Origin: Chloroflexus sp.
Lineage (GTDB): Bacteria; Chloroflexota; Chloroflexia; Chloroflexales; Chloroflexaceae
NCBI RefSeq assembly: GCF_034434295.1
Contig: NZ_DAOTZQ010000001.1
Span: 31,903 to 95,902, forward strand
Direction of reading: 5' to 3'
DNA: 64,000 nucleotides
This document shows, in pieces, positions 1,205-13,288 of this stretch (the first letter of the stretch is position 1; each line of letters opens with the position of its first letter). A program made the translations under genes and the position numbers. The notes beneath the pieces are model-generated. The model did not search any database, had not been told where the DNA came from, and worked only from the letters and a program-made list of their open reading frames with translations.

Positions 1205-2026
1205 TCATGACAATTCATCCAACGCTACCCGAATCGCATGATGGTACATCGCAGATGTCATCAAATTGTTATGATCACCACCAACAATCGGATAAAAGGC
1301 CAGCGGCGCTGTCACTTCGTGCGCCAGTCGTTCACCATCGGCGAAAGGCACCACCGAATCATTCGTGCCGTGAATAATTACCACCGGACAACGCACCTGA
1401 CCGATCCACTGGTGAGAACGCAGAGGATACTTTAGCAAAAAGGACGGTACCCACGGAAACTGCCGACGGGCAATTGCTTCAATACTGTAGAAGGGACTCT
1501 CAAGGATCAACAGCTTCGGTTGATACGTCGCTGCCAATCGCGTGGCCAGCCCGCTCCCCAGTGATCTGCCATAAAGCACAATCTGCTCTTCAGGATAGCG
1601 TTGCCGCACCCATTCATAGACAGCGGCAGCATCGGCGTGCAACTCCGCCTCACTCCCAATCGTACCGGTGCTCTGACCATACCCGCGATAATCAACCATC
1701 ACCATCTCGTAACCATACTGAACCAGCTCCGGCGCCACCTCTCCCCAGGTACGCAAACTCCCGGCATTCCCGTGAAAATAGAGGATCACCCCTCTGGCCT
1801 GAGACCGGCGAAACCACAAAGCATGGAGCTGTGCCCCCTCAACCGGAATCAAGACCTCTTCAACCGGAATACCAAACTCATAATGTGTACCGGGCGGGTC
1901 GCGATCAGGAAAAAAGATCAGACGTTCTTGAAACATATAGATCACTCCGCAAATCGTTACATACCCTGGAACGAGAATGATGATGAGACGGAGGATGGTT
2001 GGGAGCATGTTACAAATCCTTACCAT
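1205..2026 (-). CDS. alpha/beta hydrolase (serine hydrolase fold)
   Basis: ORF of 273 aa with an N-terminal TM segment, HGNAGS oxyanion-type motif, GRSLGSG nucleophile elbow (GxSxG) and distal HGTNDSVVP and GGDHN (Asp/His) motifs. The start may be the internal Met at 2008. Confidence 0.8.
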   Translation of the reverse strand: MVRICNMLPTILRLIIILVPGYVTICGVIYMFQERLIFFPDRDPPGTHYEFGIPVEEVLIPVEGAQLHALWFRRSQARGVILYFHGNAGSLRTWGEVAPELVQYGYEMVMVDYRGYGQSTGTIGSEAELHADAAAVYEWVRQRYPEEQIVLYGRSLGSGLATRLAATYQPKLLILESPFYSIEAIARRQFPWVPSFLLKYPLRSHQWIGQVRCPVVIIHGTNDSVVPFADGERLAHEVTAPLAFYPIVGGDHNNLMTSAMYHHAIRVALDELS

Positions 2027-2225
2027 CAGACAATGAAGAGTATACGCTAAACATTATATGCATGCCTGAGTAGAACTTATTTCATAAAAGCTGTTCTGTC
2101 GTGCTACCCGATCACAGCACAGGTACAGGAACGCTTGCCAATCACCAACGACAGTGTATTCTGTGCCCAGCCTGTCTGTATGGAAACGAGGAGGTCTGAC
2201 GACCATCACCAGGGCCATCACTCGT

Positions 2226-2695
2226 TGGATTGGCGCCGTACCCGCTCGTCATGCGCGTGTCGCAGTGTTTGGAGTGCGGCAGCATGGCTGCCGCAGCAGC
2301 CGTGCTCACGATCCGGCGCGTGGCGCACTATTACCCCTCCTGGTCACGGAGATACTACATGTGCTCGTGACGATCATCGAGTCGGTCAGGAATGAATGAG
2401 CTACCTGCTCGTAGACGTTTGTTTGCAATAGGTTCTCGCCTGCACACTAGCGGCCACGGCCAGCACTTGACGGGGTGGCGGCGATGACTAGACGTGGGCT
2501 GGAAGTCCACGCTACTGGAAACCCGCGCCACGGGGAGCGCTTGCAGCCCGGCCTAACGCAGCAGGGGGCCATTGATTGCATAACCACATGGTGTGCGTGA
2601 CTCACGATGCGCCATGTCCAGCACACTGTGCTATGAAGCGTCATACCGGCTGCTGGATGACATGGGGTAATGCATAGCGCACAGCACTGCGGGAG
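2226..2695 (+). repeat. copy A (long form) of a conserved structured non-coding element
   Basis: Alignable by eye to 11934-12276 (copy D), and through its core to 5622-5785 and 11355-11555. It contains the hairpin GCGGCAGC-AUG-GCUGCCGC (2276-2294), the invariant CAGCCGTGCTCACGATC, and a second hairpin at 2310-2345. Reading frames are not conserved between copies. Confidence 0.75.
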
Positions 2696-2856
2696 TGGGA
2701 ACAGAGATGAGGGCGTTCCGCACCTACCACAACCCTATCTTCCGCATACGCTTGCATGTGCTGTCCGTCCCTGAACTTCTAACAGAACAGTATTGCACAG
2801 TCCCTCCAACTCCTTCCCCCGCCAACTGTCGAAAAGGAAACTTTTCCTTATCGTAA

Positions 2857-3060
2857 TTGTGATAAAACCCACAGCTTTTTCAAAATTTGTGCAACAAATC
2901 ACAAATTATATCGCGGTAAATTAGGCGCTCCATCCAGCCAAATTTGTACTTTTTTGCCCAGGATTTCTGTGCAGTTGGCGGGCAAAATATGGTAATATAG
3001 AAATCAGAGGTTTCAACCTTCGATATAATCATCAAGGAACAGGGCTATCTGAGGTTTCAA
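2857..3060 (+). promoter_or_regulatory. candidate promoter/operator region of the AP2-domain gene
   Basis: AT-rich stretch. Inverted repeat TTGTGAT (2857-2863) / ATCACAA (2898-2904) encloses the palindrome ATTTGT-gca-ACAAAT (2885-2899). Extended -10-like TGgTAATAT at 2990-2998 and TATAAT at 3024-3029. The 10-bp direct repeat gaggtttcaa (3007-3016 and 3051-3060) flanks the TATAAT and abuts the RBS. Confidence 0.35.
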
Positions 3061-3075
3061 AAGGAGCAATCAGCA

Positions 3076-3723
3076 ATGCCTCGTCGACACGCTGTGCGAC
3101 CGGTGAATCTGCCGGCTTCTGAGCCGACAACCGCTAATGGGCATCCTCAATCACATCCTGACAATGATCCGATGTCCGTCCTGCGCTATGAGCCGCTCCC
3201 CGATCTCGATCCAGATCAGGCTCGTCAGTTGCTATCGGCGCCGACCACACCGGTTGTTGCTGACACGAAGAAGTTGCCTGCCCGTCTCCGCCCAAAGACG
3301 ACAAAGCACAAGGGGATTACACGCATTGACCACCCGGCCAAGCGCACGTTCGGCTATTTTGTGCGCGTCATCTGGAATAAGCAGCGCCGCAGTAAGTTCT
3401 TCTCCGACTCGGTGTACGGTGACAGGCTGGCCGCACTCGCCGCGGCTATCGAGTGGCGAAACGCAACCGAACGCGAGCTAGGCAAGCCGCGTACCGAGCG
3501 TCAGGTCATCGGTGTTGCCCGCACCAGCACCGGTATTGTCGGTGTACGGCGCACGATCAAAGATGGTCGCGAGGTTTACGAAGCGACCTGGCGTGACGGC
3601 AATCGTATTCGCCGCACCTCTTACTCGATTGCCAAGCACGGTGAACGCCGCGCCCTCGCCCTGGCCCGCCGCGCTCGCGAAAAGTACGAGCGGCAACGCC
3701 AGCGCACCCCGGCAGCCGATTAG
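3076..3723 (+). CDS. DNA-binding protein with two AP2-like domains and a Pro/Asp-rich N-terminus
   Basis: ATG preceded by AAGGAG. There are two repeats of the AP2 pattern: GITRIDHPAKRTFGYFVRVIWNKQRRSKFFSDSVYGDRLAALAAAIEWRNATERELG and GIVGVRRTIKDGREVYEATWRDGNRIRRTSYSIAKHGERRALALARRAREKYE. No HNH or integrase domain is attached. Confidence 0.65.
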   Translation: MPRRHAVRPVNLPASEPTTANGHPQSHPDNDPMSVLRYEPLPDLDPDQARQLLSAPTTPVVADTKKLPARLRPKTTKHKGITRIDHPAKRTFGYFVRVIWNKQRRSKFFSDSVYGDRLAALAAAIEWRNATERELGKPRTERQVIGVARTSTGIVGVRRTIKDGREVYEATWRDGNRIRRTSYSIAKHGERRALALARRAREKYERQRQRTPAAD

Positions 3724-3751
3724 GTCCCTCCAGGTCTTTGTTGATTGCTTC

Positions 3752-3790
3752 CCCCCTGCATCGTGGTATGCAGGGGGATTTGTACATGTT
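3752..3790 (+). terminator. rho-independent terminator of the AP2 gene
   Basis: 10-bp perfect stem CCCCCTGCAT (3752-3761) / ATGCAGGGGG (3768-3777) with a 6-nt loop, followed by ATTTGTACATGTT. Confidence 0.6.
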
Positions 3791-4151
3791 GCACAATGTC
3801 TGATCACAGGCTGTCTGTCACACCCACTGGCATATTGCCCGCATCCCGCCTGCGCCACCAAACCACGCTACGCCAGGGTGCGCTACTGCCAGATGTCACC
3901 GGCACCGGGTATGGTTTCCAATGCTGGCCCAACAACGTTAGACAGTACGATCCCACCCTTATCTGACCGGCCTTGTCGCTGCCATCCATCTTGCTTGGCG
4001 AACAACGCACGATCACTGCGGGCCACCAGCACCTCACGGTTTGGTTGGTCTCAGACAGCGCTGCCACATGCGTATCAAAAACACCACTCTCGCCGTTGGT
4101 TGAGTTACTGAAAGACAACCTTTTTGTTGTGTGAAAATTAGAAAAATGTCT

Positions 4152-4157
4152 TATAAT
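4152..4157 (+). promoter_or_regulatory. candidate -10 box (TATAAT) for the XRE-cupin operon
   Basis: Consensus TATAAT lies in an AT-rich stretch about 40-50 nt upstream of the start codons at 4196/4205. There is no good -35 box. Confidence 0.3.
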
Positions 4158-4195
4158 AATGAACAGATCAAGCTGCCGAGTTAGAAAGATAGCCG

Positions 4196-4840
4196 GTGCC
4201 ATCTATGGTTGATCCAGTGAGTAGTCCGCATCTCGTTGGTGAAATTGGCAATGTAGACGTTGGTACACGCATTCGGACCCTGCGTGAACAACGGCGCTTA
4301 TCAATCCGCGCTCTCGCCGAGGCGAGTGGTCTTGCCGTCAATACCCTCAGTCTGATTGAAAATGGTCGCACGTCACCGAGCGTCAGCACCTTGCAACGTC
4401 TTGCAGTGGCTCTACAGGTTCCGGTTAGTGCCTTCTTTACGCCCGATGTGCCACAGCAACGTATCGTCTTCACCCCGGCAGGTCAGGCCATCGCCAACCT
4501 CTTCCCGCACGGTGCCCTGGCCGATCTCGCCCCAGGCATGATCAACCGCACCCTCGAACCGCTGCTGGTCACGCTCGAACCCGGCACCGGTAGTGGCCCT
4601 GAAGCAATTGTCCATACCGGACAGGAATTTGTCTTTGGTTTAAATGGGCAGATTCAGTACACCGTTGCCGATCAGATATTCATCATCAATCCGGGTGATA
4701 GCCTGCTGTTCGAGGCCGCTCTCCCCCACCGCTGGCATAACCCCGGCCATACGCCAGCCCAGGTGCTGCTGGTCTTGTGTCCGCTTGAATTACCCCGGAG
4801 CGTGATTGCCCGTCATAGTCCTTTATTAGCGAAGGAGTAG
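4196..4840 (+). CDS. XRE-family transcriptional regulator with C-terminal cupin domain
   Basis: HTH_3 signature IGTRIRTLREQRRLSIRALAEASGLAVNTLSLIENGRTSPSVSTLQRLAVAL, then a cupin-like beta-barrel segment (GQEFVFGLNG...GDSLLFEAALPHRWHN). The start is either GTG 4196 or ATG 4205. Confidence 0.85.
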   Translation: MPSMVDPVSSPHLVGEIGNVDVGTRIRTLREQRRLSIRALAEASGLAVNTLSLIENGRTSPSVSTLQRLAVALQVPVSAFFTPDVPQQRIVFTPAGQAIANLFPHGALADLAPGMINRTLEPLLVTLEPGTGSGPEAIVHTGQEFVFGLNGQIQYTVADQIFIINPGDSLLFEAALPHRWHNPGHTPAQVLLVLCPLELPRSVIARHSPLLAKE

Positions 4841-4845
4841 AAACG

Positions 4846-5247
4846 ATGCCAGTCCGAACCTTACACCTGAGTGAGGATGGAGTCAGCCGTGCCGAACAAA
4901 ACATCACGTTAACCCGGATTGCGCCTGGTCAGATTACGCTCAATAATCAGCAAGTGCTGGCAATCCACGCTCTTGATCGCTGCACGCTTGCTCTCGAAGT
5001 TCTCGGCGAAACCCATTACCTTGCTTCCGCCGATTACTGGCGTGCTGCATCCGGTCACAGCCGTATCGATACTCGCCAGGCCGGTTGTCTGTTAGGTTAT
5101 CTTGATAGCCTGGCAATCGCTGCTCGTCAAGTGCTGACGGCCTTCACCGATCAAGCCAACCTCTCCCCCCAGGCCCAGGCCGCCCTGACCAACCTCCGCA
5201 CAGCGTTGACTAGTCTGGAACTGGAAGCGAAAAAGAATGGTCATTAA
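4846..5247 (+). CDS. hypothetical protein, co-transcribed with the XRE-cupin regulator
   Basis: ATG lies 5 nt after the upstream stop and is preceded by GAAGGAG. Composition is coding-like and the gene is followed by a strong terminator. I recognise no family. Confidence 0.6.
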   Translation: MPVRTLHLSEDGVSRAEQNITLTRIAPGQITLNNQQVLAIHALDRCTLALEVLGETHYLASADYWRAASGHSRIDTRQAGCLLGYLDSLAIAARQVLTAFTDQANLSPQAQAALTNLRTALTSLELEAKKNGH

Positions 5248-5336
5248 TGCAATCTAACTACGATGCGTACACCGTCACGCCGCGCTGATCACATATCGCT
5301 GACCTGCTGTACTATCATCACCTGTTTGCATAATAA

Positions 5337-5372
5337 GAAGCGGGTGGGGAACCCGCTTCTCTGTCGTCTTTT
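5337..5372 (+). terminator. rho-independent terminator
   Basis: GAAGCGGGT (5337-5345) - GGGGA - ACCCGCTTC (5351-5359), followed by TCTGTCGTCTTTT. Confidence 0.75.
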
Positions 5373-5621
5373 CAATCTTGCCGGACAAGGTAGCGTCTAC
5401 TCAATAGCACGCCCGTGCCAGTTGGGAGAGTGACCTGGGCGAATCGATTACTGGCAGTCGTCTCCTGCATTCACACCAAAAAATTATTATGTCAATTTTT
5501 ATTAAGCAAGCGCCAGCGTCCCCCTGGAAACACGAGCCGCCAGCTCGCCCGTAACATGACACAGCATGCACTACAGACCCACACTGAACCGTTCACACCC
5601 AAAGCATATCCTGCTCCCAGT

Positions 5622-5785
5622 CTGGATAGGTTGCCTTGCCCGCCCATCATACCCGTGTCGCACAGTATGGAGTACGGCAGCATGGCTGCCGCACCAGCCG
5701 TGCTCACGATCCGGGTCGTGACCTACCGTTCACCCTGCGGGTCACGGGGATGCTGTGTACGCTCGGTCAGGAATAAATTGAGATA
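5622..5785 (+). repeat. copy B (short form) of the conserved structured element
   Basis: Shares the 5' leader CTGGATaGgTTGCC..CCGC..GTGTCGCAC, hairpin 1 (5675-5691), CAGCCGTGCTCACGATCC, hairpin 2 (5708-5743) and GGTCAGGAAT with copies A and D. It lacks the long 3' extension. Confidence 0.7.
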
Positions 5786-5972
5786 ACGGCTAGCAGGTGT
5801 TTTTTAAACTAAGTTCTACACTAGTGACACCCCACCAGCAACTCGCCAGTAGTACACCCGATAGCAATTCAGTACCGGTATGATGCCCGAACGATGCGCA
5901 AGCGCAGTAGTACGACACGCTGTATCCCTACCTCGTACCACCACATCAACGCTCGCCAACGATCCAACTCCG

Positions 5973-6833
5973 CTACGGAATGAGTGGCGGCGGTAAGACA
6001 CCCTGGACTTCCAGCTCTACCTTCCAGCGTGCCAGCAGTGCCAGTAGTAGTAGCGTGACCAGGAAACCGGCAATTCCTGGTAGCAACAATTGCCCTGGAC
6101 GACGAACCCGGCCATTCAAGCCGGCGAAGGCACTCACCGGTAACCCAATCGCAAACGTCATGACCCCCGTTACCCCAACCACGCTGATTAGAACTAGCGG
6201 CCAGGCCAGCAGAGCCTGGTCGGAAGCTATCGCCAGCACGACCAGCGCCAGTGCGCCAACCACCCACCCCATATCAGCCCAACTGCCAATCGGTGCCTGT
6301 GTGGTATCGATGAGGTCGGGAGCAAGCAGTGTTTGATTCGCCACCAGCAACAAACCGACCGCCATCGCTACCCCAAACCCCAACCCGGTAATCAAACGCA
6401 GATCATTGCGCGGCGGATAGGCAGCACCCCATCCCAGTTCGGCCACAGTTGAATTCAGGCCATCGACAGCCATGATCACAATCAACCCCAGCAGTGTCAG
6501 ACTAACCGGCAGTGGCGGTAGCCGTCCGGCCCGCCAGTGCCCACGCCAGGCAATCACACCCAGGGTTACCATGAGGCCGAGATAGATCCCACTGTCACGG
6601 GCACAGAGCGGAAACTGCACACCACCCACTTGAAGGTTGTGACTCTGGGCGCAGATTCCGTGGACGGCAAAAAAGAGGCGTCGTTCCAGGTCAAGGGTTG
6701 CCGCAACCAGCGGCAACAAACCGATTGCCACTATCATCCCGACCAAAAGGCTACCGATTCGCCAGCCATTGGGTTGACGCAAACCGGTTACCAACCGTTT
6801 TCCGAGCAGAGATTGTCTATTCTCACCTCGCAT
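5973..6833 (-). CDS. DUF2085-family integral membrane protein
   Basis: Multi-TM ORF with the HGICAQSH...FPLCARDSGIYLG pattern typical of DUF2085. GAGAGG RBS lies 5 nt upstream of the ATG. Confidence 0.7.
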   Translation of the reverse strand: MRGENRQSLLGKRLVTGLRQPNGWRIGSLLVGMIVAIGLLPLVAATLDLERRLFFAVHGICAQSHNLQVGGVQFPLCARDSGIYLGLMVTLGVIAWRGHWRAGRLPPLPVSLTLLGLIVIMAVDGLNSTVAELGWGAAYPPRNDLRLITGLGFGVAMAVGLLLVANQTLLAPDLIDTTQAPIGSWADMGWVVGALALVVLAIASDQALLAWPLVLISVVGVTGVMTFAIGLPVSAFAGLNGRVRRPGQLLLPGIAGFLVTLLLLALLARWKVELEVQGVLPPPLIP

Positions 6834-7042
6834 ACAACCTCTCTTCTCGTGGTTTAGAAGCTTTTTCGTCTATTCCTGTCGCACCCGAATTGACTACTTT
6901 CCCCCACGCAGTGATCCACCTGTCTGCTGGGTGACATGCAACAGCCCTGCGCCCACTTCCACGCTACTCAACACCCGCCACGTATCGCACCCATTACTAT
7001 CCTGACCTCTGACTGTTCAGCGATCCGCGCAGTGTCTGCTCG

Positions 7043-7540
7043 TCAACGTACTGCCTGCGGGCTATCCGTCAACTGAATGATCACCGCCTGCGCCGTACCA
7101 TCATGCACCGTCAGCCGGGCAACTGACAGACCCGCACCCCGTGGCGCACCAGCCGTCCCCGGATTCAGAAACAGAACGGAATTGTGTACTTCGCACAATG
7201 GCCGATGGCTATGACCAAAAATGTAGACCTGTGGAGATCGCGCATCAGCAGTCTTCGGTAACGATTGCACAAGATGGTTCGGCTTGCCACCGATATGGGT
7301 CAGATAGATCAACACACCCTCACGCTCAATCCAGCGACTCGCTGGATACGTCCGGGCCAGTTCCGTCCCACTATCAGTATTCCCGTGAATAGCAATCACC
7401 GGCGCTACTGCCTCAAGCTGCGTCAGCACCGCTTCATTCCCAATATCGCCAGCGTGTACAATCAACTGAACCCCAGACAACACCTGCAAAGCTGATGGTG
7501 CCAGAAAACCGTGAGTATCAGAAATAACCCCTATCTCCAT
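7043..7540 (-). CDS. metallophosphoesterase, YfcE/MJ0936 family
   Basis: Motifs ISDTHG, HAGDIG, HGNTD and GHSH in canonical order; 165 aa. Confidence 0.85.
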   Translation of the reverse strand: MEIGVISDTHGFLAPSALQVLSGVQLIVHAGDIGNEAVLTQLEAVAPVIAIHGNTDSGTELARTYPASRWIEREGVLIYLTHIGGKPNHLVQSLPKTADARSPQVYIFGHSHRPLCEVHNSVLFLNPGTAGAPRGAGLSVARLTVHDGTAQAVIIQLTDSPQAVR

Positions 7541-7543
7541 TAT

Positions 7544-7969
7544 TCAACTCCCGCTCAGCTCCTTCTGCAATGCTGCGATCCCTGCCTCAATCCGTTGAAA
7601 AGCCGGCTCAGGCTCCAACACGTCGGTATCAGGTACCTGCCAGTAGGCAATTCGATCAGCCCATGCCGGAAAACGCTGCTGCATCAAAGGCCGATGTTCA
7701 GCTTCGTTCAGTGCAATCACCAGCGTTGCCTGCGTCAGATCGGCCTCGCTCAGCGTTCGTGGCAAAGGCAGTTCATCCGACGTCGTAAATCCGCACTGTT
7801 GTAGCCGCTCAAGCACCGGAGGCCAGATCGGCCCGCGATTGCGTGGCGAGAGTGCCAGGCCGCGTGACCTAGCCTGCCAGCCTTCAACCTGCATGGCATT
7901 GAAGAGCAGCTCAGCATAGCGACTACGATAGTAGTTTCCGGTGCAGACGAAGAGCACAGTCCTCTTCAC
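7544..7969 (-). CDS. low-molecular-weight protein-tyrosine phosphatase / ArsC-like phosphatase
   Basis: N-terminal P-loop VLFVCTGNYYRSRYAE (CX5R-S) and a distal Asp-containing VPDTD; 141 aa. Confidence 0.8.
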   Translation of the reverse strand: MKRTVLFVCTGNYYRSRYAELLFNAMQVEGWQARSRGLALSPRNRGPIWPPVLERLQQCGFTTSDELPLPRTLSEADLTQATLVIALNEAEHRPLMQQRFPAWADRIAYWQVPDTDVLEPEPAFQRIEAGIAALQKELSGS

Positions 7970-9066
7970 CTCGCCACCTCCAATGCATATCGCACATCGG
8001 CATGCTCACACGGTGGCCCGTCAGTTGCATACAACACACCGGCAGTCACGTCCATAATCACCGAGGCGACCGTTTCATAATACTCATCAGGTGGATCGGT
8101 AGGATCAATATGAAAACAGACCGAATAGGGGAAATGATCGTGATCACGCAAGGCCGCCTGCACCTGTGCCAGCGATTGTGGACGAGTAGCCAGCAGCGTG
8201 CGTAATCGCTCTTGCCGCCAATATGAATGAGGATAACGCTCAATCTGCCGCTCCACAATACCGAGCGCTGCCGGATCGGTAAAATGGTTGGCGTGAACCA
8301 GACAACCGTTGGTGCAGCCACTGATCGCCAGCGCCGCCGGTGCTGCTTCAATATTGACTACCCGATCAGGTACCTGTGCCAGCAGAAAATTGGCTGAACC
8401 GGCCCGTTCTTCGCTCGTGATCACCGCCTGCGCTTCGGTCAGTGTGCGTGCCTGCAATATCTCATAACAACGCACATGAAATGGTCGGCGCAGACTGGCC
8501 CAATCATCACCCGTACTACTCAAGCCATTGATTAACAGGGCCAGACCGTCAGCATTCAAGCCAATCTTCCCCCCAAAAATACCGGCCTCGGTGAAAGCCA
8601 GCGTGCGATGCCCATCTGGTGCAATCGTGCGCAGAATCGCCCCCCGCACCCCCTGAATCCAATCCCAGTTTTCGCCCACCAGCAAATGACCGTTATCTGT
8701 TTCTGACGGCAACAACGCAAAAGCGGTACAACCATCAGGCTTACCGGTACCCCGCTCATACTCGCGAAAGAACTGATAAAACAGCTCATAACGCACATTC
8801 AACGCCGCAATCGCTGCCAGATCAACGCCTGCCCCCTCGGCAATGCCGCGCATACCGGCTGCATAATCCTGATTTTGTTCAGCGATCACAGCCGCATAAC
8901 GCAGCGCCCGCTGCCAGACCTCGTCCTGTGGTATCCGCAACTCACGCTCGAATCGCGTCATATAGATGCGAAGGTTGGCAGCAATCGCCTCGCGCAACGC
9001 ACGGCCATGCTGCCAACCCTGAGCATAGGCATCACCACTCAATTCAACTAACGGCAACCCGTTCAC
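7966..9066 (-). CDS. peptidase C45 family protein (acyl-CoA:6-aminopenicillanic acid acyltransferase-like, Ntn hydrolase)
   Basis: 366 aa with an internal GCTAFAL segment (the self-processing Cys nucleophile context of C45/AAT proteins) and a GENWDW motif. It overlaps both neighbours by 4 nt. Confidence 0.7.
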   Translation of the reverse strand: MNGLPLVELSGDAYAQGWQHGRALREAIAANLRIYMTRFERELRIPQDEVWQRALRYAAVIAEQNQDYAAGMRGIAEGAGVDLAAIAALNVRYELFYQFFREYERGTGKPDGCTAFALLPSETDNGHLLVGENWDWIQGVRGAILRTIAPDGHRTLAFTEAGIFGGKIGLNADGLALLINGLSSTGDDWASLRRPFHVRCYEILQARTLTEAQAVITSEERAGSANFLLAQVPDRVVNIEAAPAALAISGCTNGCLVHANHFTDPAALGIVERQIERYPHSYWRQERLRTLLATRPQSLAQVQAALRDHDHFPYSVCFHIDPTDPPDEYYETVASVIMDVTAGVLYATDGPPCEHADVRYALEVAR

Positions 9067-10034
9067 GTCACCTCCTCATTCTGCGCACAGCGGTGGAGAA
9101 CAATCCACACCGGCCCACGCCGAAAACCTAACCGTTCATTGATATGCCACATCGCCAGATTCGTACTATCGTTATCGGTACGAATCCCACTCAACCCCTT
9201 CGCCCCGGCATACGCAATTGTACAGAGCTTCAGCGCCAGTGCAATACCCCGTCCACGATAATCACGCCGCACCGCCGTAAACCCAACCTCAACATCAGTA
9301 CTATCATCAATGGTTTCTAACGTACTGATCCCCACGATCTGCCCCTCGTGCACCGCAGCAAAGCTGCCCTCCCACAGCGCACCGTGGTCAGGCTGATAGA
9401 GCTTGATCCACTGATCGTAGGTCGGCATCGTGACCGGAAATGGCGACGGTACATCACAGGTTGTTTGTCGTTCAAATTCGTACAACTGCTGCCAGAACCC
9501 CTTATCGGCTGTTGCCAGCGCCGCAAAGCTGATCAGCTCAATCTGCTGCGCCGTCACCCGCTCAATCGAACCGCTGAAAGGTGTCGGATCAAAGGTTGCC
9601 AGATCGAGCCGGGAAACCCAAACCCGCCGACTCTCGTGGAACTGCCGCCGACCAGCAAACATCAACCCGGCCTGCCAGTCCTCACGCACCTTGAGCCAGA
9701 TATGGTGCGGTTGTAGCGGCTGCCAGGCCATCTGAAGATGCTGCCAGAGTGCCCGGCCCAAACCTCGCCCCTGAAAGGCCGGATGCACAACGATCTGCAT
9801 CTCCAGATGGGTGGGATTGGCACACCATATCGGCTGATAATATTCGGCATACCCACCGGCCCTACCATCCAGCTCGCCAATCCATCGGCAGAGTGGCAAA
9901 TTCGGATTGTGAATTTCATCACGAATACGCCATTCTATCGCCGATAGCGGTGCATCTGGAGCCAGCGCATTATAGACATTGGCCATCACGCGATAATCTG
10001 CATCCTGGTGTTGGAAAGGTCGTATATGGATCAT
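9063..10034 (-). CDS. GNAT-family N-acetyltransferase with two GNAT domains
   Basis: Two acetyl-CoA-binding motifs, VHPAFQGRGLGRALW and VRRDYRGRGIALALK; 323 aa. Confidence 0.8.
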   Translation of the reverse strand: MIHIRPFQHQDADYRVMANVYNALAPDAPLSAIEWRIRDEIHNPNLPLCRWIGELDGRAGGYAEYYQPIWCANPTHLEMQIVVHPAFQGRGLGRALWQHLQMAWQPLQPHHIWLKVREDWQAGLMFAGRRQFHESRRVWVSRLDLATFDPTPFSGSIERVTAQQIELISFAALATADKGFWQQLYEFERQTTCDVPSPFPVTMPTYDQWIKLYQPDHGALWEGSFAAVHEGQIVGISTLETIDDSTDVEVGFTAVRRDYRGRGIALALKLCTIAYAGAKGLSGIRTDNDSTNLAMWHINERLGFRRGPVWIVLHRCAQNEEVT

Positions 10035-11017
10035 ACACTATCCAGGTCCTTCACAAATTCAACCCAGGCCGGTTGTTTAACAAACCCCAGCACATCATTA
10101 ATCTGCAACATCGACCGATTGGTCGTTGCATTATAGGTACGCACTTCGCGATAGCCTGCAGCCTGCGCACGGGTCAGCGCGTGTACCTTAAGCGCCATTG
10201 CCAGACCACGCTTACGATACGCTCGTCGTGTCGCCGTCAGACCAGTCATCAACACATCCGGCTCAGCCGATTTCCAGAGTTGACTGAGCGCAGCAATCTC
10301 TTCCCCGTCCAGCGCCAGAAAATATCCTTCCGGGTAGAGCGTTGGGTCGTTGAACAGAGACTGTTCCCACGAAGCAAAATCGGGCGGCGTAAACGGTTCC
10401 GGCTGCGGCACATCTGCCCGCATCTCCATCGTGGCACGGTACAGGCGCTGGCGAGCATCCGGTAATCGTGTCAGCAATTCACGCAAATTGCAGATCGTGA
10501 AACCCTGGGCCACGACACGATCAATGGCAGCGCGAAACGGCGCCGGATCGAAGGTGTGCAGATCAAGTCGCGACTCCCAGGTCCGCATCTCTTCCCGAAA
10601 ACCACGTCGGGCAAGAAACTGCATCCCGCGTTCCTGATCCTCACGGCAATTCGCCCGCACCTGTAACGGATGATGGCGACTCTGCAAATCACCCATCAAT
10701 ACGTCGTAGCAATAACGACCAATACCCTGGCCCTGCCACGTCGGAAGAACGGCAATACTGACAAAGAACTTGCGTGGGTGATACATCCATTGTGGCTGAA
10801 AATACTCGGCGACCCCTACCACCTCCCCGTGCACCTCAGCAAACCATCGCTCCTGAATACAGTGAGCTGGTCGCCTGGCATCCCAGTGTTGAACCTGTTC
10901 AACCATTTCAAGATTATCGGGAAATACAGCATTGCCAATTGCAACCAACAGAGCATAATCTGCCGCCGACCCATCAAATGGTCGTAATCGGACATCCTGA
11001 TCAACATTGATCGCCAT
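10031..11017 (-). CDS. GNAT-family N-acetyltransferase with two GNAT domains (tandem paralogue)
   Basis: Motifs VLPTWQGQGIGRYCY and TRRAYRKRGLAMALK. I place the start at ATG 11017 (MAINVDQD...), preceded by AGGAGAGG. The ORF-track start at 11089 adds 24 unlikely residues. Confidence 0.8.
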   Translation of the reverse strand: MAINVDQDVRLRPFDGSAADYALLVAIGNAVFPDNLEMVEQVQHWDARRPAHCIQERWFAEVHGEVVGVAEYFQPQWMYHPRKFFVSIAVLPTWQGQGIGRYCYDVLMGDLQSRHHPLQVRANCREDQERGMQFLARRGFREEMRTWESRLDLHTFDPAPFRAAIDRVVAQGFTICNLRELLTRLPDARQRLYRATMEMRADVPQPEPFTPPDFASWEQSLFNDPTLYPEGYFLALDGEEIAALSQLWKSAEPDVLMTGLTATRRAYRKRGLAMALKVHALTRAQAAGYREVRTYNATTNRSMLQINDVLGFVKQPAWVEFVKDLDSV

Positions 11018-11354
11018 AACCTCTCCTTGAACGCACCGTAGCAGGATTCCAGGTGGTGAAACTGTGCTCTGTGGTAACCACCACCTCACGGGCTACCCCG
11101 GTGATAAAACGATCCCGGCCTGTATTGTACGCTGCGCACCTGCTGCTGCCATCAGTCCATCGGCTCAATATATCGCGCCATCGTGGTGCAGCGAAGGCCA
11201 GAACCTGCAATCAACGCATATATCAAATCTGGTGTTAGAGAATTCATGACGCGTACTCCGCCGATCACCACGCCACCACACCTGAGCACAGATGCGCCGA
11301 ACAGCGTTATCGCTCTGCACGCAGCAGGATCGTGTTTCAGAGCAGATACCGTTA

Positions 11355-11555
11355 CCAGACCGATTGCCCTTTCCGCGTCGTGTGGCGTGCGGTAGCCATG
11401 CTGCCGCGCCAGCCGTGCTCACGATCAGGTGCAAATCGTAGCGGTTTCCTGGCCAACCATGAAGACGGCATCCATGCCGGAACGCCTGTCTGGTTTAACC
11501 ATTCCGTGCTGATCTGCCTGCCCGCAAACGATGGCGAGAATTAGAGAGCAGGTGT
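11355..11555 (+). repeat. copy C (short, divergent) of the conserved structured element
   Basis: Hairpin GCGGUAGC-CAU-GCUGCCGC (11389-11407), CAGCCGTGCTCACGATC (11410-11426) and hairpin 2 UCAGG/CCUGG (11425-11452). The tail ..GAGAGCAGGTGT resembles the tail of copy B. Confidence 0.6.
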
Positions 11556-11610
11556 CCAGTATGGCACGCCACCTACCATCACCCTCACCCAACGATTGTA
11601 AGCGCCCCTG

Positions 11611-11802
11611 CTGCGAGCACACGCCTCCGCCTCGCTCCCCACTGGACAATTTACCGAGCCTGCCGCCAGCGGAGTATCCCTCCCCTGAACCCGCTCGCGA
11701 CAGCGGGCACCCTCTGTCACCGAGGTTCCCGCCCCCGCTGGAGGCGGGGCAGGGTGGGGGCAATACCCTGCGAGCGCACGCCTCTGTCTCACTCCCCACC
11801 GG
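11611..11802. repeat. GC-rich repeat block: two 35-nt imperfect direct repeats flanking hairpin-forming sequence
   Basis: 11611-11645 ctgcgagcacacgcctccgcctcgctccccactgg versus 11768-11802 ctgcgagcgcacgcctctgtctcactccccaccgg, 30/35 identical. Between them lie inverted repeats CCCGCT-cgcgac-AGCGGG and CCCGCC...GGCGGG. Confidence 0.8.
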
Positions 11803-11933
11803 CACCAGTCTGCGCTAGCGAGCACCATCCGGCACCGGCAGTTCTCGCCCCCAGCGGCTATGCATTACCCATACCTGGTGTCAACCACGTGCGTATCAGC
11901 GGGTATGATCGCTATGGGTGCTGTCTTGCTGGA

Positions 11934-12276
11934 TGGATTGCCGTACCCGCTCGTTATGTGCGTGTCGCACGGTGTGGAGTGCGGCAGCCATACTGCCGCT
12001 CCAGCCGTGCTCACGATCCGGCGCGTGGCATACCGTTCCCCATCCTGATCACGGGGGTGCTGAATGTGCTCGTGCCGATCATCACGTCGGTCAGGCATGC
12101 ATGCGATCCCTGCGTGTAGACGGTTATGTTGCAATAAGTTCGTGTCTGCACACCAGCGGTCATGGTCAGCACCTGCCGGCGGTGGCGATGATGCCTCCAC
12201 GCGGGCTGGAAGCCCGCGCCACGGGGAGCACTTGCAGCCCGGCCTCACGCAGCGTGACATGTGGGTAATGCGTAGC
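11934..12276 (+). repeat. copy D (long form) of the conserved structured element
   Basis: Collinear with copy A from TGGATTG.. to ..GGGTAATGCGTAGC. Hairpin 1 at 11981-11999, core at 12002-12019, hairpin 2 at 12015-12050. It differs from A by indels only. Confidence 0.75.
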
Positions 12277-12604
12277 TCGGCGGAAGCGGGTCAAGGTAGG
12301 GGCATCTCCCAGCGCACTGCACGACGCAGCACTACCGTCACCCGCTCATCACCCATCACGCGGACGAACGACACGTGCACCAGTTTGTGCACCGCAAAGA
12401 TACTACCAGTGGCTCACCAGTGGCACGTCTGACAATGCTCCAGTACGGTTCTAAAAACCTGTACGATGGACAGTCTCGGTCAAGAGTTGATACAACAAGC
12501 GCCCACACAAGCTTGCGTGAAACAACATTCACATCAACTCAAGTACAATGAGTGTGGAATCTATCGTTGGTAGCAACAGATCGCTACATACGAAGGAGAG
12601 CTGA

Positions 12605-13288
12605 ATGCCGATCCATGCCCTCATCTTCGACTTCGATGGTCTGATGGTCGATACTGAGACACCCGCCTTGCAAAGCTGGCAAGAGATCTATGCCGAATAC
12701 GGCGTTACCCTAAGCGTCCACGATTGGGCGATCACCCTCGGCGCAAATGCCGGGTTTGATGCTCATACCCATCTCGTCGCCTTACTTCAGCAACGCGATC
12801 CCCAGTTGGCCGAACAAGTTATCGCTGCACGAGATACAATCATCGCTCGCCGCCAGGCCCGTAAGGATGAACTAAGCGCCCCACAAACGCTTCTGCCCGG
12901 TGTTGCTGAGTTGCTAGCCGAAGCACACACAAAGGGCTTACCCTGTGCAGTTACCAGTAGCAGTAGCCAGCGCTGGGTTGAAGGCTGGCTTGAACGTCTC
13001 GGCACACGCCACTTCTTCGCAACAGTCGTCACGGCTGATGATGTAGCAGCAACGAAACCGGCACCCGATCTCTTCCTGGAAGCAGCCCGCCGCCTGGGTC
13101 TACCACCGGCAACCTGTCTGGTACTCGAAGACTCCCCTAACGGCATCCTGGCTGCCCGTGCAGCCGGCTGCCCGGTCGTTGCCATCCCCGGCGCGATCTC
13201 TGGGCAGGTTCCGCTACCGCCTGCTGATCTGACATTACCCAGCATGGCCCACACCACACTTGCCGACCTGCAAGCTATCTTTCGCTAG
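12605..13288 (+). CDS. HAD-superfamily hydrolase (subfamily IA, beta-phosphoglucomutase-like)
   Basis: Motif I IFDFDGLMVDTE, motif II VTSS, and distal K and EDS motifs. GAAGGAG RBS. Confidence 0.85.
   Translation: MPIHALIFDFDGLMVDTETPALQSWQEIYAEYGVTLSVHDWAITLGANAGFDAHTHLVALLQQRDPQLAEQVIAARDTIIARRQARKDELSAPQTLLPGVAELLAEAHTKGLPCAVTSSSSQRWVEGWLERLGTRHFFATVVTADDVAATKPAPDLFLEAARRLGLPPATCLVLEDSPNGILAARAAGCPVVAIPGAISGQVPLPPADLTLPSMAHTTLADLQAIFR

Follow-up and report, generated by a model that had tools for sequence, protein, structure and literature searches.

The window, by which we mean the whole 64,000-nt stretch of Chloroflexus sp. DNA analysed here, contains four related repeats (A, B, C and D) lying among genes for an alpha/beta hydrolase, an AP2-domain protein, an HTH-cupin regulator, a DUF2085 protein, GNATs and a HAD hydrolase. 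The initial annotation had described these as four same-strand repeats, and this was borne out by an exact 17-mer, CAGCCGTGCTCACGATC, located on the + strand at 2297, 5695, 11410 and 12002 (4 in the window compared with 0.22 expected by chance from shuffles, allowing ≤ 3 mismatches). Alignments identified a 68-nt block common to A, B, C and D, with A and D remaining collinear much further. Hairpin 1 lies where it had been placed initially, and alignment showed both the 16-nt deletion in D and the ~95-nt extra module of A (2564-2658) to be real, the latter being a subfamily module present also in loci L017 and L001. The proposed absence of a mobility gene holds for the window, where no transposase was found among the neighbouring genes, but not for the lineage, which has an IS5-family partner element.

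The boundaries of the repeats were revised by aligning copies with long flanks, and the family was found to extend well past the coordinates given earlier. The left end of A is at 2073, directly after a TA (2071-2072), and not at 2226, and its right end is at 2677; the right end of B is at 5816 and not 5785, and the left end of D at 11858 and not 11934. Weak TIRs had also been suggested, of which the right one, GGGTAATGC, was correct while the left one, GTACCCGC, is internal sequence; the elements in fact terminate in GAACTTATTTCATAAAA for the S-type and in CTATGCATTACCCA for the L-type. The features of the four copies, in the terms of the MITE reading developed below, are as follows.

2071-2089, + strand: A, TA target dinucleotide (2071-2072) and S-type left TIR GAACTTATTTCATAAAA (2073-2089), from the TIR family and the junction with the orthologous contig L074
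2073-2435, + strand: A, S1-type MITE of 363 bp, from the TIR pair and an nhmmer score of 210 bits
2214-2436, + strand: A, ~225-nt body common to all subtypes
2276-2313, + strand: A, core, comprising hairpin 1 GCGGCAGC-ATG-GCTGCCGC (2276-2294) and then the 17-mer CAGCCGTGCTCACGATC (2297-2313)
2302-2313, 2361-2375 and 2597-2609: A, GTGCTC(..)ACGATC repeats in direct orientation
2419-2435, + strand: A, degenerate S-type right TIR TTGTTTGCAATAGGTTC
2436-2677, + strand: A, right arm of L-type, joined to the S-type body and containing the ~95-nt module (2564-2658)
2663-2677, + strand: A, L-type right TIR TGGGGTAATGCATAG
~5602-5816, + strand: B, 5′-truncated S-type copy without left TIR, body at 5619-5817
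5800-5818, + strand: B, right TIR TTTTTTAAACTAAGTTC (5800-5816), then TA (5817-5818)
11329-11545, + strand: C, old degenerate copy without TIRs, core well preserved only at ~11375-11432
11858-12275, + strand: D, complete L-type element of 418 bp
11858-11871 and 12262-12275, + strand: D, left TIR CTATGCATTACCCA and right TIR TGGGTAATGCGTAG

To determine the distribution of the repeat we scanned the pattern GCCGCNNCAGCCGTGCTCACGA against one genome per species. A single MAG, Chloroflexus sp. H69_720, contained 57 exact-core matches, with at least 35 more copies beyond these, while 13 further matches fell in unrelated GC-rich genomes in unrelated sequence context and look like chance. In the window and 54 loci, an nhmmer search with a profile of the body identified 96 distinct copies, 35 of which lack the exact pattern. 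Mean pairwise identity of the body is 76 %, nearest neighbours sharing 74-97 %. Many of the H69_720 copies lie within ~60 nt of a contig end, as expected of a repeat that breaks assemblies. Coding DNA of the window is ~91 % identical to H69_720, and the window therefore derives from a sister species of that organism. A literature search for Chloroflexus MITEs returned nothing, the two terms being met together only in work on Porphyromonas gingivalis repeats.

Two sets of ends are found on these copies. The S-type TIR, GAAC[T/C]TATTTCA[T/A]AAAA, is 17 bp long, is present at both ends, occurs at ~50 places with unique flanks and is almost always adjoined by TA. Complete S-type elements are 274-275 bp (S2) or 343-363 bp (S1) in length. 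In two nested S-type insertions (L005 and L047) the interrupted copy regains the consensus length only when one TA is removed, which argues for a TA duplication; as TA flanks the TIR in any case, support for this duplication is indirect, coming from the two nested cases and the known habit of the IS family. L-type copies, with ends CTATGCATTACCCA ... TGGGTAATGCATAG and a length of 414-568 bp, are bordered by longer repeats. Exact direct repeats lie directly outside the ends in L027 (10 bp) and L057 (11 bp), L012 has an exact 10-bp direct repeat with a 6-nt offset on one side, and the 10-bp direct repeat of L040 matches at 9/10 positions; that of D is imperfect (CCCAGCGG / CTCGGCGG). L-type copies are often found within GC-rich hairpin repeats of the form CCCGCCCC..GGGGCGGG, and they seem to insert into such hairpins with the duplication derived from the loop.

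S- and L-type copies share the same ~225-nt body, with the hairpin and 17-mer in its middle, and L-type copies contain a degenerate S-type right TIR internally; the family is therefore a mosaic. The family shows the properties of a MITE, namely a size below 1 kb (274-570 bp), no coding-type variation, TIRs, target duplications and many dispersed copies. We also observed that the C-D spacer (11546-11857) consists of other short GC-rich hairpin repeats, such as GGTTCCCGCCCCCGCTGGAGGCGGGGCAGGG at 11724-11754, which recur beside L-type ends in the MAG (L040, L039, L031, L027 and L017). A second small element of ~160 bp has the same L-type TIR (CTATGCATTACCCA[T/C]AAC) around an unrelated interior (..TCGGATACTGCATAGCCCGCG..) and was located at L060 798-957, L074 ~10780, L067 4722, L046 5834 and L052 264; it is a second MITE family, which probably uses the same L-type transposase. 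On the - strand of L018 (3300-4300) there are two partial L-type units in tandem, each comprising the left arm and body up to ..CCTGGTCAC and followed by TTATGCATCATCCACTA, as if the unit had been duplicated in tandem or one internal site had received nested insertions repeatedly.

Comparison with an orthologous locus supported the ends assigned above. L074 is an orthologous contig from a relative, with ~87-96 % identity to the window. To the left of A both read ..CCTGAGTA and homology stops exactly there, at TA|GAAC, after which the window goes on with GAACTTATTTC and L074 with unrelated DNA; to the right of B homology restarts at 5819, directly past GTTC-TA. A clean empty site was not recovered, as at the sites of both A and B L074 carries other repeat DNA. 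C is orthologous to copies in H69_720 (L048) and L074, and the right part of D together with its flank is orthologous in L074, hence these copies are old. L076, from a relative with ~80 % identity, is fully syntenic, and all three gaps are free of copies there.

Two further arrangements were considered at these sites and rejected. The left TIR of A (2073) and the right TIR of B (5816) are correctly oriented with TA outside both, as in a MITE-bounded composite transposon, and enclose three genes (3076-5247) for the AP2-domain protein, the HTH-cupin regulator and an unknown protein. Both L074 and the ~80 % relative L076, which lack these copies, carry the three genes in synteny; the genes are thus ancestral, and the arrangement is not a recent composite transposon. 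A stretch immediately to the left of A (2058-2069) that resembles a degenerate L-type left TIR has the same bases in the L074 flank and is ancestral flank sequence.

In this lineage the gaps between genes are crowded with repeats. Short units rich in GC (CCCCTGGGAGCG..CCGGCGCGCC-like) occur in tandem at 5470-5560 of the window and at L074 7430-7650, with more units in L074, and the gap of L076 orthologous to site A (9600-9760) holds a different repeat of CCACAGAGGGCACAGAGAGC type, found also in L052. Beyond the left edge of the window, in window orientation, L074 12555-15275 encodes past the hydrolase gene a phage tail sheath, a T4 gp19-like tube and baseplate proteins, and is a contractile tail-like cluster.

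A candidate partner for the S-type copies was found at the edge of L013, where an element start, TAGAACCTATCTCAAAAATG.., precedes ..DLTDDQWAVIEPLI, the sequence with which transposases of the IS5 family usually begin. Scanning metagenomes with 24 nt of this ORF retrieved complete IS copies at L069 4363-5214 (852 bp) and L070 826-1677. The TIRs of the IS, GAACCTATTTCAAAAA / TTTTGAAATAAGTTC, match the S-type TIR, and TA is present on both flanks in L069 and L070. The IS has two ORFs overlapping in different frames. ORFA matches DUF4096 (Pfam, 1.3e-27) and NCBIfam transpos_IS5_3 (114.9 bits, cutoff 110), while ORFB matches DDE_Tnp_1 (1.6e-14); its alignment to transpos_IS5_3 covers the second half of that model and, with 106.4 bits, falls slightly short of the cutoff of 110. 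Both IS ends are present in H69_720, at L013 8-103 and, at a contig start, at L012 1-74; the latter had been considered as a new MITE variant on account of its odd element end and was rejected as such, being the right end of the IS. Within the 64-kb window no autonomous IS was found.

The size, TIR length, 2-bp duplication and split ORFs of the partner fit an IS of the IS5 family, IS427-group type. IS427-group elements are 832-865 bp in length with 13-21-bp IRs and two frameshifted ORFs expressed by programmed frameshifting (PMC3281130), and mostly generate a 2-bp direct repeat, or 4 bp in ISPha1 (PMC3281130 Table 2). With its 852 bp, ~17-bp TIRs starting GA and TA flanks the partner resembles IS1248, ISPaes1 and ISPpa6 of that group (PMC3281130); unlike these examples it was found only in metagenome contigs and as the two end fragments in the MAG. 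The interior of the MITE is unrelated to the IS, the link between them consisting of the 16-17 bp TIR, ~26 nt at one of the ends and the presence of both in a single genome. As its interior has no similarity to the IS, the repeat is a type II MITE. For the L-type copies, no long element with CTATGCATTACCCA ends was present in the loci searched; a solo L-type TIR at L013 359 adjoins a 992-aa protein without obvious transposase features. In L069 the complete IS directly adjoins part of the left end of an S-type MITE (TAGTGCTTATTTCATAAAGCTGTAC, on the reverse strand at 5217-5250), so that IS and MITE co-occur in that metagenomic organism too.

The repeats had initially been presented as structured non-coding elements with compensatory stem changes. 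Across the window no Rfam match was obtained at gathering thresholds, and at E ≤ 10 the region containing all four copies (1900-12700) gave only chance-level matches, with none to Chloroflexi-1, HEARO, omega-RNA or group II introns. When the structure first drawn was applied to 36 full-length bodies 83 % of cells were paired, and its 2 double-change pairs compare with 2.2 in shuffles, so that the compensatory changes reported for it do not stand out. Hairpin 1 is 97 % paired with zero double changes and, being essentially invariant, is uninformative on covariation either way. The small hairpins of A (CUCG..CGAG) and D (CGUG..CACG), previously equated, occupy different registers and hence do not represent covariation. 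RNAalifold returned -15.9 kcal/mol for the 36 full-length bodies with a covariation term of -0.78. A hand-built alternative, in which helix 2 is bulged and a further hairpin lies upstream, contains 5 double-change pairs compared with 2.5 in shuffles, a value reached in 19/500 of them; this excess is marginal and within the range of unconstrained related sequences. In an all-pairs screen, real pairing rules had no advantage over fake ones. Mean fold z-scores of -0.9 (+ strand) and -1.2 (- strand) give no strand preference. No terminator-like site is present inside any copy, and the sole promoter-like match inside a copy (2135-2162, in the S1-specific left arm of A, 9/12) is within shuffle expectation. 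Taken with the drift of copy C described below, these results do not support the structured-RNA reading.

The core is nevertheless the slowest-evolving part of the element. Its columns are ~80-99 % conserved even in the 35 copies without the exact pattern, compared with 40-60 % in neighbouring segments, and the S1, S2 and L chassis all retain it. In the more distant lineage represented by L073 the hairpin is retained and the 17-mer has five changes. In the H69_720 ortholog of C, hairpin and 17-mer together carry 4 changes, much as the flanks do, which points to a constraint acting on propagating source copies and not on each inserted copy. The loop of hairpin 1 (window positions 2284-2286, 5683-5685, 11397-11399 and 11989-11991) reads CAT in 51 copies, ATG in 11, CAC in 1 and GTG in 2, with CAT and ATG both found in S-like and L-like subfamilies. 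As these states are reverse complements of each other, the loop has been inverted repeatedly. Recurrent inversion of this kind is the behaviour of a DNA quasi-palindrome subject to template switching, a process that can keep the arms complementary without selection on an RNA. In most copies the GTGCTC(..)ACGATC motif of the 17-mer is repeated in direct orientation ~55 nt further downstream, and the 95-nt module of A holds a third instance; the repeated motif could be a protein-binding site.

It is very probable, in our assessment, that the four repeats belong to a gene-less mosaic MITE family with ~100 copies in a related Chloroflexus genome, the S-type ends of which are shared with an IS5-family IS. 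Of the two alternatives raised initially, a non-autonomous mobile element agrees with the TIRs, target duplications, nesting, copy number and IS partner, while a small-RNA family is not supported. S-type copies would most likely be mobilised in trans by the DDE transposase of the 852-bp IS427-type IS, and L-type copies were presumably moved by a second transposase. Under the MITE reading the core would not be an RNA used by the host, and we infer that its conservation would arise either because continued propagation is limited to source copies whose core is intact or because self-correction of the quasi-palindrome maintains the hairpin.

That same conservation is what favours taking hairpin 1, the 17-mer and the downstream helix for a functional small RNA or cis-acting RNA module merely spread by transposon ends, since the core is the best conserved segment, persists on all three chassis and keeps its hairpin in L073; the hand-built structure with its marginal excess of double changes (5 vs 2.5; 19/500 shuffles) leans the same way. 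However, there is no match in Rfam, covariation does not rise above shuffles, fold z-scores are only -0.9/-1.2, terminator-like sites are lacking within the copies, and the promoter-like match is at shuffle level. Copies also lie in divergent, convergent and nested contexts, and the core of C, with its 4 changes in the H69_720 ortholog, decays in place like its flanks, leaving us to regard such a module as quite improbable. A broader proposal is that the ~60-nt core, comprising the 8-bp hairpin, the flip-flop loop, the 17-mer and the second GTGCTC..ACGATC, is selected functional cargo carried on at least two unrelated transposon chassis, where it could be a putative protein-binding site or small RNA. 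We consider this unlikely, while giving it some weight; if true, the MITE would be the means by which a conserved regulatory element is distributed in Chloroflexus. Host-maintained palindromic units similar to REP/BIME, or sites for a host DNA-binding protein, without transposon derivation, would be consistent with the perfect 8-bp GC-rich hairpin stem, with GTGCTC(..)ACGATC occurring two or three times in direct orientation per element, and with a mosaic architecture reminiscent of BIMEs. The clear TIRs with unique flanks, the target duplications and nested insertions, the matching autonomous IS and the lack of copies at orthologous sites in L076 all speak against it and make it very unlikely.

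The possibility that the element encodes a small protein arises from ORFs that cover the core in A (at 2135-2395), in C (at 11332-11544) and in D (at 11918-12268). These had been described as lying in different frames; they in fact share a frame relative to the core, and are 70-116 aa long, and the open stretch in that frame has a median of ~60 aa over 36 copies. However, three other frames are similarly open (medians of 40, 55 and 61 aa), several open frames being expected in GC-rich DNA. Codon periodicity is absent from the variation (p = 0.46), no start codon is conserved, flipping of the loop converts Met to Trp, and B has an early stop in this frame. We treat the ORFs as accidental open frames in GC-rich DNA and see next to no chance of a coding role. 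The subterminal-looking hairpin and the common strand of all four window copies could recall derivatives of IS200/IS605-type elements (PATEs, omega-RNA/HEARO ends) or fragments of group II introns. Such an origin is hardly credible, given that the copies have TIRs and target duplications, which IS200/IS605 lacks, that no TnpA or TnpB is encoded among the neighbours, that no Rfam match appears even at E ≤ 10, and that four copies on one strand have a chance of 1/8.

The MITE family described here is previously undescribed and of a familiar kind, an ordinary element and not a new structured RNA. The type II MITEs BrickBuilt, MITE293 and MITE700 of Porphyromonas gingivalis and the ATR element of Neisseria share only their TIRs with IS5-family elements, the ATR having the ISNme1 TIR GAGACCTTTGCAAAA (PMC4596501). 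The Chloroflexus MITE is likewise small, non-coding and multi-copy with many partial or nested copies, and its TIRs match a resident IS5-family IS while its interior is unrelated to it; the TIR pattern itself is similar to that of the BrickBuilt/ATR group (GA.ACCT.T..CAAAA). It differs from this group in belonging to the phylum Chloroflexota, in its ~100 copies compared with 10-20, in its GC-rich rather than AT-rich body, in the occurrence of that body also between other ends, unrelated to the first and giving a ~10-bp duplication, and in its conserved central hairpin with a flipping loop.

A second parallel is provided by the Correia/NEMIS elements of Neisseria, which are high-copy MITEs with TA duplication, internal indel variants and nested or mosaic copies, features that recur in the Chloroflexus family. 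Correia elements are 100-160 bp in length and have documented promoter, IHF-binding and RNase III functions; no partner IS is known for them. The Chloroflexi-1 motif, HEARO, omega RNA and group II introns are comparable as repeated non-coding elements of Chloroflexus or of mobile DNA, but the family described here gives no Rfam match.

A candidate new structured RNA is thereby removed and replaced by a MITE annotation with precise ends and a likely IS5/IS427-type partner. The repeats break MAG assemblies and make intergenic regions hypervariable in this lineage, so that knowing them aids assembly, annotation and strain comparison in hot-spring Chloroflexus. With one body on two sets of ends that have different duplications, and with recurrent inversion of its loop, the family offers a small model of end swapping in MITEs and of hairpin evolution.
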